From the IMG/VR virus record IMGVR_UViG_3300045988_149609: 64,000 nucleotides of DNA; one strand, given 5' to 3'. Of the stretch, positions 5,643-10,936 are shown one piece after another. A model generated the notes under the pieces. The model made no database searches. It worked only from the letters and a program-made list of their open reading frames with translations, and was not told where the DNA came from. Source of the stretch: a virus. The translations under genes were made by a program, and so were the position numbers. The stretch's first letter is position 1; every line of letters starts with the position of its first letter.

Positions 5643-6203
5643 ATGATAGGAACGCATGATAGTTTTACTTATTTAAAAGCAAAACATAAAATATATGAAT
5701 TGTTTTCATTTTTATGGAGAACACAAACTAAATCTCTAGAAGAACAAATAGAAAATGGAGTTACCTACTTTGATATAAGAGTACATAGAACTAAAGATAA
5801 TCAATGGGAATTGTGTCATGGATTAGTAAACTTTGATAAATCCTACCAATCTTTAGCTACTCTACTCAAAGAATTAGCTAGGTTTAATATTAGATTAATT
5901 TTAGAAAAAGGTACAAAACAAGATGAAATAGAGTTTGAAAAATTGATTTATGTACTTAAATACAGATATAATAATTTAGTTTTTTCAGCTATTAAAAAGA
6001 ATTGGAAAGTATTACATAATACACATTTAGCTATTATGGATTATACTTATATTCCTTTTTATTCAGATCTTTCATTTTGGCAAAATATTAAAAGGATGAA
6101 TTGGTTTAGTACTATTAAAAAATGGGCTAAAAAACATAATCCTGTTATTACACAAGATATGAAAAATGATATTAATGTTGTTTATTTTATAGATAGATTA
6201 TAA
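5643..6203 (+). CDS. PI-PLC X-domain-like phosphodiesterase (186 aa)
   Basis: IGTHDSFTY, ...EEQIENGVTYFDIRVH... and WELCHG align with the bacterial PI-PLC catalytic motifs IPGTHDSGTF, IFDIRGR and HHG. Confidence 0.55.
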   Translation: MIGTHDSFTYLKAKHKIYELFSFLWRTQTKSLEEQIENGVTYFDIRVHRTKDNQWELCHGLVNFDKSYQSLATLLKELARFNIRLILEKGTKQDEIEFEKLIYVLKYRYNNLVFSAIKKNWKVLHNTHLAIMDYTYIPFYSDLSFWQNIKRMNWFSTIKKWAKKHNPVITQDMKNDINVVYFIDRL

Positions 6204-8503
6204 TGAGTAGAACAAAAGATAATAAAACAAATAAAAATCAAAATACTTCACAAGAACAAATAAAAGAACAGGAAATGACTTTTCCTTATTATGATTGGAT
6301 AAATGGATCTTATTATCATAATAAAGAAGAGTATGATGTTCATGCTCCTAATAATATTCTTTGGAAAGAAGTTTCTCAAAAAACTTTAAATGAAGTTAAT
6401 AAAAAATATAATTTAGGATATAAAGTAGATAAAAAAGGAAATGTTGTAAGAAATAAATATACGCATTCACCAATATATGCAGATGGTCGTGAGAATTACC
6501 CAGAAGGTGAAGAATATAATAAGTTGTATGAAAATAATGTTGAAACAAATAAAAGAAGATTAGAACTTGAAAAAACAGCAAAAATAAAAACAAAATCTTC
6601 TTCAACTGTAGATCCTGGAGGAGTAAAAATAGCTGGAATAATTCAACAAATAGGAGCTACAACTCCAAATAATAATCCACAAGCAGTAGCACAAAGAAAC
6701 GCACAAGCAAAACAAAGGCAAGTACAGCAACAAACAGAAAATAAAGATTATATAGAAAATCAAAAAAAATTAGGAGAATTATTTTTAAATTCTGCAGCAC
6801 TTGCTACTTCTATTGCAGCAATGGGGTCTCAAATAGGTAGTGCTGTATATAACAATAAAGCAAATAATTTATTATTTAGACAAGGATATGCTACAGGAAT
6901 AAATAATCCAAAATATATAAACTATACAAATATTGCTAATGATTTAGATCGTATATATAAAGTAGCAGATGCTATAAATTTACCCATAGATATTGCTCAA
7001 TTTGCAACAAGTTCTGGCCCAAAAGAACAAGTTTATAATGGAATACAATTAGGGCTATCAGGTATAAAATATGTACCTATAAATAATCCTGCTTTCGGTG
7101 TAGTTAAACCTGTTACTAGTTTTGTAGGTAATTTAATGGAACCTATTTCATTAGGTTTTAAAGAAGGAGGCCCACTTAAAAAATCATACAAAGATTTTTC
7201 TACTAGATTATCTAAAGCATGGGGTAATCAAGATTTAAGTCAAGATAATTATGATTATCAAAAGTATTATAATGATGATCCAGATAGAGCTTATAGGCAA
7301 CTAGAATCTATTGAAAAAGGAGGGCAAGGCCATTTTGATGATGAGGGAAAAAGTGGCACTTATAAAACACCTAATCATGCTACTTATCCTGATTTAGGTG
7401 CTAATTCTTGGCTTGATGATGGTAGAATATTTAATATATCTGCAAGACAAGCTAATCAAGGATTAGATAATATAAGAGATGAAATAAATACAGATAGAAT
7501 ATTAGACTATTTAGGACATGATTTGAATTATAATAATGGAGCTACTAAAGTAATATATGATGGGGCATATCAATTACCTTCAGTAACAGTTGTTTCTACT
7601 CCAAAAGGTAATTATGCAAGAACAGAACTTATCCCTAATGAATTAGGTACAGGTTGGATGTATAGAGATAGAGCTGGAAGGTTTGCTAATTTTAATTATG
7701 ATTATGTAAATCGTTATGACGGAAATCAAAAAGCATTAAGTGGTAATTTATTTAGAAATGGTTCTTGGATGCCTAATAAACAATGGCGAAATAGAATTTC
7801 TGCATGGGAAGGTTCTTCAATGTATAGACCTGCACCTGATACAGGTAGAGTTAATAGTTCTTTTCAAGCAGAAGCTAGTAGATTTTTATCTGTTTTACCA
7901 AAAAAAGCATTACAGAAATTACCTGAACAAGCAATAAATGCTTTATATAGTTATAGTTATAATGTAGGTGCAGGTAACTTTAAAAAGAGAGTTGTACCTG
8001 TATTAAATAAATATCTTGATGGAAAAGCTTCTTTACAACAAGTTACAAATAGTATGTATGCTACTAAAGATTCTCAATTAAGAGGTTTACAAAAAAGAAG
8101 AAGATATGAAAGAGGAGCTTTTGAAGCAGCTATTACAGGTAAAGATTTAACAGGTACTAATGCTTATCAGCAATATGATCCATTAACAAGTAATTATCAA
8201 TCAAGTAATTCACCTGCCACTAAAAGAAGAAATATTCAATGGACAGACACAATTAATTTAAATGATGGTAGTTTAATACAACCAAATCAACAAGCTCCTT
8301 CTTTAATGCAACAATTAGCACATTCTGAAGAAATTTTAGCTGAAGCAAACAAGAGAATAAATCAAGTTACAACAAGAATGATGCCTGATGCACAAAGTAA
8401 TGATCCTTATATTAATGCTGTTTATAATTCTTCTATTCAAGATAATAGAGAACTTTTAGCAAATGATTTAAAAACATATTTAGAAACAAGTTTAAATTAT
8501 TAA
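6203..8503 (+). CDS. large protein (766 aa) with a C-terminal GH24 (T4-lysozyme-like) muramidase domain
   Basis: WEGSSMYRPAPDTG matches the catalytic E-G-x4-Y-x4-D-T-G motif. LYSYSYNVGAGNF and LRGLQKRRRYERGAF match the C-terminal signature of phage lysozymes. The N-terminal ~500 aa are of unknown function. Confidence 0.55.
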   Translation: MSRTKDNKTNKNQNTSQEQIKEQEMTFPYYDWINGSYYHNKEEYDVHAPNNILWKEVSQKTLNEVNKKYNLGYKVDKKGNVVRNKYTHSPIYADGRENYPEGEEYNKLYENNVETNKRRLELEKTAKIKTKSSSTVDPGGVKIAGIIQQIGATTPNNNPQAVAQRNAQAKQRQVQQQTENKDYIENQKKLGELFLNSAALATSIAAMGSQIGSAVYNNKANNLLFRQGYATGINNPKYINYTNIANDLDRIYKVADAINLPIDIAQFATSSGPKEQVYNGIQLGLSGIKYVPINNPAFGVVKPVTSFVGNLMEPISLGFKEGGPLKKSYKDFSTRLSKAWGNQDLSQDNYDYQKYYNDDPDRAYRQLESIEKGGQGHFDDEGKSGTYKTPNHATYPDLGANSWLDDGRIFNISARQANQGLDNIRDEINTDRILDYLGHDLNYNNGATKVIYDGAYQLPSVTVVSTPKGNYARTELIPNELGTGWMYRDRAGRFANFNYDYVNRYDGNQKALSGNLFRNGSWMPNKQWRNRISAWEGSSMYRPAPDTGRVNSSFQAEASRFLSVLPKKALQKLPEQAINALYSYSYNVGAGNFKKRVVPVLNKYLDGKASLQQVTNSMYATKDSQLRGLQKRRRYERGAFEAAITGKDLTGTNAYQQYDPLTSNYQSSNSPATKRRNIQWTDTINLNDGSLIQPNQQAPSLMQQLAHSEEILAEANKRINQVTTRMMPDAQSNDPYINAVYNSSIQDNRELLANDLKTYLETSLNY

Positions 8504-9207
8504 TTGAAATAAATAATTTTGAAGATTATGTTGCAGCAATTACTGCTAATGCTAATCAATATTCACCAACACTTCCAAATAATCTTCAAACAGGAATTAA
8601 TACTTATGATTCTGTAAATGAATTACCTTTGGATAATTATTATTTTTCAGATGTACCATTAGAACAACATCCAGAAATTAATAAAAGCATAGCTAATAGT
8701 TTAGCTAATTCAGTAGTTACACCAACTACACCAGTTACAACATTACCAGAAGCAACAGTAACTGCAAAAAGAAAAAATAGATTTGTAAATGTTAAATCTA
8801 CAAATTCTAAACCTACAAGAGAAGCTTTAATGAAAAAATTAAATTCAGGAAATATTACATTTATAGATAAAAATGGTAAACAAGTAAAAGCAACAAAAGA
8901 ACAAATAGAAAAAATGAAACGTTGGGTATCTGGGCCTATGACAGGTAATCCTCCTTTAACGATAAGGGGGTTTGCATATAATATGCTACGAATTGCAGGT
9001 GCTCGAATAGCACATAAATTACCAATGATTGGAAAAATAGGATCTACAATAAAATCTGGTCTTAAAAAAGTAGAAGATATGTTACCTAAAAGATATGATA
9101 ATCCAACCCCAACAAATGGAAGATATATAAGTGCTGGTAAAAAAGGACTTAAACGTCTTTCTTCTAGTAGTAAAGCTGCTACTAGAAATGCTTTATTAAA
9201 TCCTTAA
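8470..9207 (+). CDS. -1-frame ORF with no ATG start; possible frameshift extension of the 766-aa gene
   Basis: This frame is open from 8467 and has no in-frame ATG before the track's TTG at 8629. It overlaps the last 12 codons of 6203..8503 in the -1 frame. A U_UUA_AAA slippery heptamer sits at 8467-8473. The product is basic, rich in K and R. Confidence 0.35.
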   Translation, partial: KNIFRNKFKLLIEINNFEDYVAAITANANQYSPTLPNNLQTGINTYDSVNELPLDNYYFSDVPLEQHPEINKSIANSLANSVVTPTTPVTTLPEATVTAKRKNRFVNVKSTNSKPTREALMKKLNSGNITFIDKNGKQVKATKEQIEKMKRWVSGPMTGNPPLTIRGFAYNMLRIAGARIAHKLPMIGKIGSTIKSGLKKVEDMLPKRYDNPTPTNGRYISAGKKGLKRLSSSSKAATRNALLNP

Positions 9208-9263: not shown

Positions 9264-9371
9264 CACTGCTTCTGTGAAGAAGTAATGCAAGTTAAATGGT
9301 TATTGGGGATAGTTTATATTATCTTGAAGGTTCTAGATATAAACTTTTATGTAAGATTAAACCTTCATATT

Positions 9372-9443
9372 TGGCTAATAGTTCAATGGTTAGAACAGTA
9401 GACTGTTAATCTATTAATCTAAGTTCGATTCTTAGTGTCCCAA
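9372..9443 (+). tRNA. tRNA-like gene, possibly a degenerate tRNA-Asn (anticodon GTT)
   Basis: Good D arm (GTTC-aatggtta-GAAC), anticodon arm (GTAGA-CTGTTAA-TCTAT) and T arm (CTAAG-TTCGATT-CTTAG), but only 4 of 7 acceptor pairs form. This may be a pseudogene or a noncanonical tRNA. Confidence 0.3.
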
Positions 9444-9447
9444 CAAT

Positions 9448-9525
9448 ATTTCGGTAGCTCAGATGGTTAGAGTACCAGAGAGAGAGGAACTCTGGAGGTC
9501 ATTGGTTCAAATCCAATCTGAAGTA
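9448..9525 (+). tRNA. noncanonical tRNA-like gene with an expanded 9-nt anticodon loop
   Basis: The acceptor ATTTCGG/CTGAAGT pairs 7 of 7 (two G-U), the D arm is GCTC-AGATGGTTA-GAGT and the T arm is ATTGG-TTCAAAT-CCAAT. The anticodon stem CCAGAG/CTCTGG encloses a 9-nt loop AGAGAGGAA with no U33. Isotype is undetermined. Confidence 0.35.
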
Positions 9526-9540
9526 TTATTTTATGAAAGG

Positions 9541-9606
9541 CCCATAGTCCCTGAATATAAATAACTTAGCTGCAGCAATATTGTTATTATTAATTCAAAC
9601 TATGGG
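9541..9606 (+). repeat. structured repeat R1 (stem CCCATAGT / ACTATGGG around a ~50-nt loop)
   Basis: Ends 4 nt before tRNA-Thr. About 70% identical to R2. Its loop contains the palindrome GCTGCAGC. Confidence 0.4.
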
Positions 9607-9610
9607 ATAT

Positions 9611-9683
9611 GCTTCTATAGCTCAGTTGATAGAGCAATGGTTTTGTACTCCATGTGTCATAGGTTTGAATCCTATTAGAAGCT
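9611..9683 (+). tRNA. tRNA-Thr (anticodon TGT)
   Basis: Folds as a clean cloverleaf: GCTTCTA-TA-GCTC-AGTTGATA-GAGC-A-ATGGT-TTTGTAC-TCCAT-GTGTC-ATAGG-TTTGAAT-CCTAT-TAGAAGC-T. Confidence 0.8.
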
Positions 9684-9688
9684 CAAAT

Positions 9689-9761
9689 GACGCTATCTTC
9701 TAAATGGTTAGAAAACAAGATTTTCAATCTTGTAATTTGGGTTCGATTCCCAATGGCGTTA
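9689..9761 (+). tRNA. tRNA-Glu (anticodon TTC)
   Basis: Acceptor GACGCTA/TGGCGTT pairs 7 of 7 (two G-U). Anticodon arm is CAAGA-TTTTCAA-TCTTG and T arm is TTGGG-TTCGATT-CCCAA. The D stem is weak (3 of 4 pairs). Confidence 0.6.
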
Positions 9762-9778
9762 CAATTTAATATTTAATT

Positions 9779-9842
9779 CCTTGTAGTCCCTGATGTAGGA
9801 TAACTAGCCATGGTGATATTGTTATCATTTCAAACTATAAGG
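9779..9842 (+). repeat. structured repeat R2 (stem CCTTGTAGT / ACTATAAGG)
   Basis: Ends 4 nt before tRNA-Arg. Relative to R1 the stem shows compensatory changes (C:G to T:A, A:T to T:A) and the loop carries CCATGG in place of CTGCAG. Confidence 0.4.
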
Positions 9843-9846
9843 TTAA

Positions 9847-9920
9847 GCATCAGTAGCTCAACTGAATAGAGCAACGCCCTTCTAAGGCGTGGGTTGTGAG
9901 TTTGAGTCTCACCTGATGTA
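9847..9920 (+). tRNA. tRNA-Arg (anticodon TCT)
   Basis: Folds as a cloverleaf: GCATCAG-TA-GCTC-AACTGAATA-GAGC-A-ACGCC-CTTCTAA-GGCGT-GGGTT-GTGAG-TTTGAGT-CTCAC-CTGATGT-A. Confidence 0.8.
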
Positions 9921-9938
9921 CTATGAAAAATTTAAACT

Positions 9939-10064
9939 ATGAAAGATTTAGACACAAATAAAAAAGAAGATTTAAAATTTCATGAATATAAAATTGTTAT
10001 AGAAGATGGAATAAATTTAGATGAATTAATACGTTTTACAAAAGAATTATTTATTAAAAAATAA
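9939..10064 (+). CDS. small ORF (41 aa) between tRNA genes
   Basis: Reads MKDLDTNKKEDLKFHEYKIVIEDGINLDELIRFTKELFIKK. It has ATG and TAA and is not in the track. Coding status is uncertain. Confidence 0.25.
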   Translation: MKDLDTNKKEDLKFHEYKIVIEDGINLDELIRFTKELFIKK

Positions 10065-10109
10065 ATTAATAATTATTTTTAAAGTCAGTATTTTGAATAA
10101 TACTTATTA

Positions 10110-10182
10110 GAACTGTTAGCTCAATTGGTAGAGCATCACACTTTTAATGTGAGGGTTATGGAATCGTACTCCATACAGTTCA
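10110..10182 (+). tRNA. tRNA-Lys (anticodon TTT)
   Basis: Acceptor GAACTGT/ACAGTTC is perfect. D arm is GCTC-AATTGGTA-GAGC and anticodon arm is TCACA-CTTTTAA-TGTGA. Confidence 0.8.
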
Positions 10183-10190
10183 CAAGAATA

Positions 10191-10265
10191 GGACTCTTAG
10201 CTCAGATGGTTAGTAGCAACAAACTCATAATTTGAAGGTCATAGGTTCAAATCCTATAGAGTCCA
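10191..10265 (+). tRNA. tRNA with CAT anticodon (elongator Met, or Ile2 if lysidinylated)
   Basis: Acceptor GGACTCT/AGAGTCC is perfect. Anticodon loop is CTCATAA and T arm is ATAGG-TTCAAAT-CCTAT. The D stem has 3 pairs. It is not initiator-like. Confidence 0.65.
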
Positions 10266-10267
10266 CT

Positions 10268-10534
10268 ATGTGTTATATAGGAAAATTAATTAAAAATAAT
10301 ACAGGAGTAAGTTCAAAGAATTTCTTCTTAGTAGTAGTAACTATAATTGGTTGTATATTACTTATCATACCTGCTATTATATTAGCTATTGAAGTATTTT
10401 ATAATCATACAATTGCTACAAATTTAGATGGAATGGCAGCATATATTGCATCAGTAGCAGCAATATTTACATCTGCAGGAATTACTAAAGCTTGGTCAGA
10501 AAGATATGAAAACAATAAAACAAAAGAGAATTAA
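10268..10534 (+). CDS. small membrane protein (88 aa)
   Basis: Start moved to ATG 10268, because the track's TTG at 10232 overlaps the tRNA. Hydrophobic core FFLVVVTIIGCILLIIPAIILAI plus a second helix. Confidence 0.45.
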   Translation: MCYIGKLIKNNTGVSSKNFFLVVVTIIGCILLIIPAIILAIEVFYNHTIATNLDGMAAYIASVAAIFTSAGITKAWSERYENNKTKEN

Positions 10535-10820
10535 AATATTTAATACTACATATACTATTAAATATATAGATAAAATTGAAAATAACGAAAATAAATTTGT
10601 GTTTGGTAGAACAAATGCTATAGATAAACATATTTATATTGCTACTAAAAATGATAATAACAAAAAGTTATCAAATGTTGAGATAAAAACAACTCTTTAT
10701 CATGAATTAATTCATGCTATTCTTTCTGAAGGAGCTTATGGAAAAGAATCAGATAATGAACCTTTAGTAGAATGGATAGCTAAATGTTTAGTACAACTAA
10801 ATACTAATAATATAATATAA
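10506..10820 (+). CDS. HExxH-motif protein (104 aa), putative small zinc metallopeptidase (ImmA/IrrE- or SprT-like)
   Basis: TLYHELIHAILSEG carries the HExxH motif. It overlaps the upstream membrane-protein gene by 29 nt. Confidence 0.4.
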   Translation: MKTIKQKRIKIFNTTYTIKYIDKIENNENKFVFGRTNAIDKHIYIATKNDNNKKLSNVEIKTTLYHELIHAILSEGAYGKESDNEPLVEWIAKCLVQLNTNNII

Positions 10821-10831
10821 TAAAATAAAAT

Positions 10832-10917
10832 GGCTTCATGGTGAAAATGGTAGACACGAAGGACTTAAAATCCTTTGGGCAGAAATGTCCGTGCGAGTTC
10901 GAGTCTCGCTGAAGCTA
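10832..10917 (+). tRNA. tRNA-Leu (anticodon TAA)
   Basis: Class II tRNA with a long variable arm. Acceptor GGCTTCA/TGAAGCT, anticodon arm AAGGA-CTTAAAA-TCCTT, T arm GCGAG-TTCGAGT-CTCGC. Confidence 0.75.
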
Positions 10918-10936
10918 CTTAATTAAAATAAAAAAT

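Follow-up and report, generated by a model that had tools for sequence, protein, structure and literature searches.

A tRNA-like gene with a purine-only anticodon loop in the variable tRNA array of a crAss-like phage

The window, by which is meant the whole stretch of 64,000 nt analysed here (IMG/VR virus record IMGVR_UViG_3300045988_149609), has a G+C content of 27% and encodes a large terminase and a portal protein of crAss type (PHROG 6681 and 6547). It is a human-gut crAss-like phage, Steigviridae-like, and the nearest named phage by terminase is Pamirivirus faecium cr116_1 (Crassvirales, Steigviridae) with 65% identity. The ENA contig ERZ28573143 scaffold_73 was found to be identical to the window across the 16.3 kb checked. 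A tRNA-like gene with a length of 78 nt, including the discriminator base A9525, lies at 9448-9525, some 4.3 kb upstream of the gene for the terminase. It takes second place in an array of eight tRNA genes, all of them on the + strand. The gene is in register with the array, starting 2-3 nt after the preceding tRNA gene, and in common with the other tRNA genes of the array it does not encode CCA. No sizeable open reading frame overlapping it was found in the window. A scan of the array for promoters and terminators gave nothing informative, promoter-like sites being fewer than in shuffled sequences, and one terminator-like hairpin is situated upstream of the array at 9162-9187. The features of the region are collected in Table 1.

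Table 1. Features of the tRNA-like gene and its surroundings in the window.
Feature	Position	Strand	Details
Chimeric tRNA: 5' part of tRNA-Asn(GTT) with the last ~10 nt of tRNA-Gln(TTG)	9371-9444	+	From alignment; three acceptor pairs broken
Acceptor stem ATTTCGG/CTGAAGT	9448-9454 with 9518-9524	+	7 of 7 paired: 5 Watson-Crick, 2 G.U
D arm GCTC-AGATGGTTA-GAGT	9457-9473	+	A14, G15, G18 and G19 all present
Anticodon arm: 6-bp stem CCAGAG/CTCTGG with 9-nt loop	9475-9495	+	Stem strands 9475-9480 and 9490-9495
(AG)5 microsatellite	9477-9486	+	Crosses the stem-loop boundary; source of the 2-nt length difference between alleles
T arm ATTGG-TTCAAAT-CCAAT	9501-9517	+	From sequence and Rfam alignment
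Hairpin element, copy 1	9527-9610	+	84 nt; paired core 9541-9606; from fold, alignments and nhmmer distribution
Remaining array: Thr(TGT), Glu(TTC), Arg(TCT), Lys(TTT), Met/Ile2(CAT), Leu(TAA)	9611-10918	+	From ARAGORN and Rfam; normal 7-nt loops throughout
Hairpin element, copy 2	9763-9846	+	84 nt; between tRNA-Glu and tRNA-Arg; in most strains

Upstream of the array the window carries a lysozyme/LysM-like gene (6203-9207) consisting of 766 aa and a separate 192-aa open reading frame. Elsewhere, among contigs L011, L012, L013, L018 and L021, this gene is either a single frame of 1353, 1447 or 1666 aa or is divided into 754 + 421 or 766 + 409 aa. The product of this highly variable gene is possibly a tail or lysis protein.

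The covariance model for tRNA (Rfam RF00005) aligned with the tRNA-like gene from end to end and gave a score of 49.6 bits (E = 1.3e-7 for the whole window). Allele A of the gene, described below, scored 52.5 bits in contig L062. As the curated gathering score is 29, homology to tRNA is indicated. The window gene reads ATTTCGG TA GCTC AGATGGTTA GAGT A CCAGAG AGAGAGGAA CTCTGG AGGTC ATTGG TTCAAAT CCAAT CTGAAGT A. A preliminary description of this DNA had given a fully paired acceptor stem together with good D and T arms, and all three were found where it had placed them. The body has the 7-bp acceptor stem, the 4-bp D stem with G18 and G19, the 5-bp T stem, the UUCRANY loop and the U54:A58 pair of a tRNA. 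The bases making tertiary contacts are likewise complete (U8, A14, G15:C48, G18, G19, G46, U54, U55, C56 and A58) as judged from the sequence and the cmscan alignment, and the variable loop is AGGTC. An eighth acceptor pair, T9447/A9525, is possible and was drawn by ARAGORN, whose call spans 9447-9526 and names the gene tRNA-Pro(agg). This ARAGORN fold was rejected; it depends on a slipped stem in the AG repeat, a G.G mismatch and a displaced D arm, and the Pro(agg) label is therefore nominal.

In the anticodon arm, the Rfam alignment leaves 11 nt between the two strands of a 5-bp stem (CCAGA/UCUGG) instead of the 7 nt of the model, everything else in the gene being aligned. Since the first and last of these 11 nt (G and C) can pair, the arm becomes a 6-bp stem closing a 9-nt loop, and both the MFE and the centroid structures calculated by RNAfold retain this hairpin. 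The same stem, the same loop size and the lack of U33 had been proposed beforehand, and the sequence, the Rfam alignment and RNAfold all bear this out. The loop, AGAGAGGAA (9481-9489), is composed of purines only and, as it is without any pyrimidine, U33 is missing. A decoding tRNA has a 5-bp anticodon stem with a 7-nt loop; the corresponding values here are 6 + 9 or 5 + 11 for the window and 6 + 7 or 5 + 9 for allele A. The U33 on which the U-turn depends is lacking in every allele; allele A has an A at position 33, and both the window and contig L076 have a G. Across all loci fetched, U33 was present in 141 of 147 distinct tRNA sequences and a purine at this position occurred solely in alleles of the tRNA-like gene. 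According to the ARAGORN register, C33 in place of U33 is found in tRNA-Arg(TCT) and tRNA-Thr(TGT) of L007 and in tRNA-Lys(TTT) of L033, all otherwise normal. The idea that the loop might be Shine-Dalgarno-like, anti-Shine-Dalgarno or a GGA loop of the CsrA type, which came from the 3' end of Bacteroides 16S rRNA, was considered and would be speculative; the complement of the loop is not enriched in the window (3 matches where 2.5 were expected).

Sister contigs were collected from public assemblies via the terminase (98-100% identical) and a 104-aa protein. The tRNA-like gene was present in 6 of the 20 contigs of the same species, namely the window, L076, L062, L070, L075 and the incomplete contig L078, and absent from the other 14. 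The contigs lacking it have tRNA-Asn, a spacer of 124 nt, tRNA-Gln(TTG), tRNA-Thr, tRNA-Glu and so on, with a gap of 3 nt between tRNA-Gln and tRNA-Thr and no trace of the gene. Accessions of the carrier samples are ERZ28573143 (SAMN02334023), ERZ28572813 (SAMN02334024), SRR1761679, ERZ19697565 and ERZ1749184. In all six carriers the gene is situated between tRNA-Gln and tRNA-Thr and the first copy of an 84-nt hairpin element comes next. The gene and this hairpin copy are always present or absent together and form a module of 161-163 nt (163 nt in the window, 9448-9610). Over 7.6 kb these strains share 98.3-99.7% identity with the window. The presence of the gene is patchy among close relatives, in the manner expected of a pseudogene.

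Three alleles of the gene were distinguished. Allele A (76 nt; L062, L070 and L075) has C at position 2, the loop AAAGGAA, A at position 45 and G at position 59. Allele B (78 nt; L076) has C at position 2, the loop AGAGAGGAA, G at position 45 and A at position 59. Allele C (78 nt; the window) has T at position 2 (9449), replacing the C-G pair 2-71 of the other alleles with U.G, together with the loop AGAGAGGAA, G at position 45 and A at position 59. The stem CCAGAG/CTCTGG is common to all three and the loop is purine-only in all three. The two loops differ by one A/G change, which lengthens the AG run, and by one extra AG unit; comparison of the alleles, read as sequences, shows the 9-nt loop to have come from the 7-nt AAAGGAA by one A-to-G change plus slippage in the AG repeat. 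It had been suggested in the preliminary description that a normal 7-nt-loop tRNA at this position in related phages would imply recent decay. A loop of 7 nt is indeed carried by L062, L070 and L075, but AAAGGAA is still purine-only and without U33. Given that allele A has this loop on the same 6-bp stem, the extra two bases are recent and the purine loop lacking U33 is older.

The four substitutions which separate the alleles are all transitions (C2/U2 opposite G71, position 45, position 59 and one loop base). None of the differences among the three alleles breaks a pair or hits a conserved tertiary base, and the chance of such a harmless placement under neutral change was estimated at roughly 7%. 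The stem-breaking mutations which would accumulate in a pseudogene were not found, the sole stem change being that at pair 2-71. The gene has changed quickly. Between the window and L062 there are 4 substitutions and one 2-nt indel in the 78-nt gene. The rest of 9446-9921 amounts to 398 nt, holding hairpin copy 1, tRNA-Thr, tRNA-Glu, hairpin copy 2 and tRNA-Arg, and shows just 2 substitutions, and the downstream background is 99.4-99.7% identity over 7.6-11 kb (99.4% for the 11 kb that follow). The divergence of the tRNA-like gene is about ten times that of its flanks, a raised rate of the kind expected of a pseudogene. This excess would fit relaxed constraint; few events are involved and diversifying selection would also be possible.

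Comparison of the window with the sister contig L076, from a neighbouring sample accession, revealed exactly three events in 1 kb. The first is a deletion of 199 nt between identical T-arm sequences (ATCTAAGTTCGATTCTTAG) of tRNA-Asn and tRNA-Gln. Both of these tRNAs are intact in L076; tRNA-Gln has been lost in the window and the resulting Asn/Gln chimera scores 58.0 bits versus 71.3 for the intact tRNA-Asn of L062. The second event is the C>T change at 9449, which weakens pair 2-71 of the tRNA-like gene. The third, G>A at 9712, breaks a D-stem pair of tRNA-Glu(TTC) and lowers its score to 54.0 from 58.9 bits, the other strains compared having G.

Further differences were noted in and around the arrays of sister strains. 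The array is a hot spot for accessory genes there, among them an HNH endonuclease gene, a GIY-YIG endonuclease gene directly after tRNA-Leu and a sulfotransferase-like gene (coordinates L015:3082-3441; L051-L054, e.g. L051:2001-2651; and L016:2728-3330). The sulfotransferase-like gene, of 200 aa, lies between tRNA-Arg and tRNA-Lys, where the window has a 41-aa open reading frame (9939-10064) instead. The CAT tRNA (10191-10266 in the window) is exchanged for tRNA-Ile(GAT) at the same position in L013 (2870-2944) and L020 (614-688). Contig L014 (ERZ28580903 scaffold_13) has an identical terminase, zero tRNA genes in the 7 kb upstream and different genes on the minus strand; either the whole array is replaceable or this contig is chimeric. 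Many independent contigs (L019, L053-L055, L058 and L059) stop just past tRNA-Leu, near 10880-10936 of the window, and in the same region L065, L066 and L068 start 56 nt before a 67-aa gene. These shared ends may represent a genome terminus or a recurrent assembly break. Some terminase homologues have 1092-1113 aa and contain the homing-endonuclease Pfam domains PF14528 and PF05204 (P0024, P0026, P0029 and P0032), and the terminase match of L006 extends over 3240 nt. These lengths and domains suggest that in related strains the terminase gene is interrupted by inteins or by inserted endonucleases.

Identity between the two hairpin copies is ~65-70%. Both fold as long and irregular hairpins, and when they are compared, two pairs of the outer stem prove to be compensatory. 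No match to the element was obtained in Rfam and it was not found in relatives with 65-77% terminase identity. Processing of the tRNAs may set the element free as a small stable RNA. Since the copies are only ~65-70% identical, the module must be much older than the 0.3-0.7% divergence of the strains.

Beyond the species, no counterpart of the tRNA-like gene was found in phages with 65-77% terminase identity, though their tRNA arrays are rich, and the best global match to it in those phages was no better than the match to the window's own tRNA-Met. Searching INPHARED (50,697 phage records) with megablast and blastn produced generic tRNA similarity alone and no homologue, the top matches being tRNA-Phe of Staphylococcus phages at 79%. 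Exact and gapped pattern scans of IMG/VR gave no match to the gene, a pattern scan of JGI metagenomes gave unrelated initiator-Met and Phe tRNAs with a shared T arm and nothing else, and a pattern scan of GTDB genomes gave one Bacteroidota tRNA-His and one non-tRNA match, with no homologue. The contig of the outgroup L080 (82% terminase identity) does not reach the array, and the contigs found via the 192-aa upstream protein stop before the tRNA-like gene. The conservation across related genomes which would be expected of a decoding tRNA is thus not seen, the gene being missing from all of the relatives with 65-77% identity as well as from most contigs of its own species. No parent tRNA with the same body and a normal loop was found in the arrays of the relatives or in the IMG/VR, JGI and GTDB scans. 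An origin from tRNA-His was considered and is not claimed; 47 of 51 core bases match the Bacteroidota tRNA-His, but tRNA-Met(CAT) reaches 44 of 51, and 6 of the 7 acceptor pairs are different from those of the tRNA-His. Because the search pattern itself dictated 22 of these 51 bases, and in view of the score of tRNA-Met(CAT), the resemblance to tRNA-His is weak evidence. The literature yielded no report of a phage tRNA with such an anticodon loop.

We regard it as somewhat probable that the tRNA-like gene is a non-decoding tRNA relic, a dispensable passenger in a recombination-prone array, and that it is processed. It would be transcribed along with the array, and the host RNase P, 3'-end and CCA-adding enzymes would excise from the transcript a stable tRNA-shaped RNA. 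Such excision is to be expected from the established substrate rules of these enzymes, given that the acceptor, D and T arms and the tertiary bases are intact. With an anticodon helix one pair too long and a loop containing neither U33 nor any pyrimidine, a U-turn would be impossible and, as a result, no anticodon would be presented to the ribosome. Judged by general knowledge of tRNAs, the gene would very probably be unable to read codons, and it therefore combines homology to tRNA with a defect that appears incompatible with decoding, as a tRNA pseudogene would. It would then drift, and be gained or lost with the neighbouring hairpin through recombination. The preliminary description had offered three possibilities, a frameshift-suppressor-like tRNA, a pseudogene and a decoy for host nucleases that target tRNA. 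The second of these is favoured by the 14 contigs out of 20 in which the gene is missing, by a loop length which varies through AG slippage and by the faster change of the gene. The lack of homologues in the phages and databases searched and the damage to neighbouring tRNA genes in this strain also speak for a relic. Against the relic reading count the purine-only loop kept by all three alleles and the lack of broken stems, since a pseudogene as old as the module appears to be ought to have suffered damage to its stems.

By analogy, the closest parallels to the gene would be the pseudo-tRNAs and small stable RNAs encoded in phage tRNA clusters. The tRNA region of phage T4 encodes the RNAs known as species 1 and species 2 and the homing endonuclease SegB. 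As in that region, there is here a tRNA-sized gene for a structured RNA in register in an array, presumably handled by the same processing enzymes and with no known decoding role, and in related strains of this phage GIY-YIG and HNH genes lie nearby as SegB does in T4. Unlike species 1 and 2, the present gene has a complete canonical cloverleaf in which the anticodon arm alone is aberrant, and its presence is polymorphic within the species.

Set against the relic reading is a possibility which we hold more tentatively, that the gene specifies a functional non-decoding RNA of tRNA shape, the body of which would recruit host tRNA-processing or tRNA-binding factors while the loop, (A/G)AGGAA, would be the working part. 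Within this reading the loop might be a decoy or sponge that occupies an RNA-binding protein or a defence nuclease directed at tRNA, might find a partner in a pyrimidine-rich RNA, or might be a handle for freeing the 84-nt hairpin, and these alternative uses are likewise possible without being probable. It is rather doubtful that the RNA has been kept for a non-decoding job in which the purine loop does the work, AG slippage tunes the loop between strains and the hairpin possibly belongs to the same module. A functional RNA would account for a cloverleaf and tertiary bases which remain intact in three alleles, with differences only at structurally tolerated positions, and for a loop which stays purine-only despite changes in both sequence and length. 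The constant co-occurrence of the hairpin as one module, and the age of that module relative to the divergence of the strains, also point to it. In other strains the same hypervariable region also holds the HNH, GIY-YIG and sulfotransferase-like genes, and phage tRNAs are known to take part in conflicts involving anticodon nucleases (PMC10264068, PMC11464382, PMC11555353). Against a functional RNA stand the ~70% of sampled strains which do without the gene, the finding of nothing similar outside the species, a loop length which is not fixed and the lack of enrichment of the loop complement in the window. The flanking normal tRNAs would, moreover, release the hairpin anyway.

The nearest viral analogy for such a module is eukaryotic. 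The TMERs of murine gammaherpesvirus 68 are transcribed by Pol III and yield miRNAs. Like a TMER, the module has a non-decoding tRNA-like element followed by a stable hairpin which tRNA 3'-end processing would free. Unlike a TMER, its hairpin is bounded also by a normal tRNA downstream, and it is known from sequence alone.

Comparable with a possible decoy are phage tRNAs which escape or neutralise tRNA-targeting defences (PMC10264068), among them the tRNA-Lys of T5 acting against PARIS (PMC11464382) and a tRNA-Tyr acting against retron effectors (PMC11555353). The gene described here shares with these a phage origin, an altered anticodon loop and a location in a variable tRNA array. In the tRNAs of those systems, unlike this one, the loop has its normal 7 nt, U33 is present and the anticodon is that of the host tRNA being replaced; the tRNA-like gene cannot replace any host tRNA. 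An escaping tRNA of the kind described in PMC10264068 would have the anticodon of the targeted host tRNA in a loop of normal size with changes at 32, 37 or 38; the loop here is enlarged and purine-only and provides no context for a usable anticodon. The anticodon nucleases so far known target specific anticodon loops containing pyrimidines (PMC10264068), which the loop of this gene does not resemble, a further point against a functional RNA.

It is improbable that the gene is a non-canonical decoder, whether as a tRNA-Pro-like molecule with the anticodon AGG reading CCU or as a suppressor of frameshifts reading more than 3 bases. In every allele the loop has, towards its 3' end, AGG and then AA. 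Of the proline codons in the long open reading frames of the window, 69% are CCT, there is no other tRNA-Pro in the array, and this CCT usage agrees with the AT-rich-codon logic seen in the remaining tRNAs of the array. In bacteria G35, G36 and A73 are identity elements for proline. All of these points would suit a decoder, but every allele has a purine at 33 and a 6-bp anticodon stem, and most strains manage without the gene. Enlarged loops are able to decode in suppressors of the sufJ and sufB2 type and in the yeast mitochondrial tRNA-Thr1 (PMC4238358, PMC3113583).

The suf suppressors (sufD, sufA6, sufB2 and sufJ) have enlarged anticodon loops (PMC4238358, bioRxiv 10.1101/2020.12.31.424971). 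They resemble the present gene in having an otherwise normal tRNA body and a loop of more than 7 nt, and in sufJ the extra base is also located 5' of the anticodon. They differ from it in having one extra base, U33 and the identity of a parent tRNA, where the gene has a 6-bp stem, a loop of 7 or 9 bases, every one a purine, no U33 and no identifiable target. Known natural and selected suppressors keep U33 and have one base inserted in a parent tRNA; in this gene there are 2-4 extra loop bases relative to a 5-bp stem, no U33 and no recognisable parent loop. Over the ~16 kb compared, the called genes have equal lengths in carriers and non-carriers, and no sign of a frameshifted target is seen in that stretch. 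The frameshift-suppressor option of the preliminary description accordingly found no support in either the gene lengths or the frequency of the loop complement.

The yeast mitochondrial tRNA-Thr1 has an 8-nt loop and is derived from tRNA-His (PMC3113583, PMC4756836). It is likewise a natural tRNA with an enlarged loop, which in its case arose by the remodelling of another isoacceptor, and the analogy is a formal one only. Its origin is weakly echoed here in that, among normal tRNAs, the Bacteroidota tRNA-His gave the closest match to the core of the tRNA-like gene. Unlike this gene, tRNA-Thr1 is essential and has been conserved between species; its U33 is retained and its anticodon can be read.

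That the unusual arm is an assembly or sequencing artefact in the low-complexity AG run is hardly credible and can be dismissed along with chance, for although a polymerase or an assembler might slip in the dinucleotide repeat that holds the length difference, the gene is in register with the array, a second sample (L076, ERZ28572813) gave an identical 9-nt-loop arm on assembly, three more (L062, L070 and L075) gave the 7-nt-loop allele, and (AG)5 is short for Illumina slippage.

If the tRNA-like gene is a relic, as we are inclined to believe, then it shows the tRNA arrays of crAss-like phages changing by recombination between T arms, by the gain and loss of modules and by microsatellite slippage inside a tRNA gene. 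It also carries a caution against taking ARAGORN calls of 'tRNA-Pro(agg)' in genomes of this kind for genuine proline tRNAs, which they are not. If instead the RNA proves to be functional, it would be a natural use by a phage of the tRNA shape for a non-decoding purpose, and would bear on the contest between phage tRNAs and tRNA-targeting immunity.
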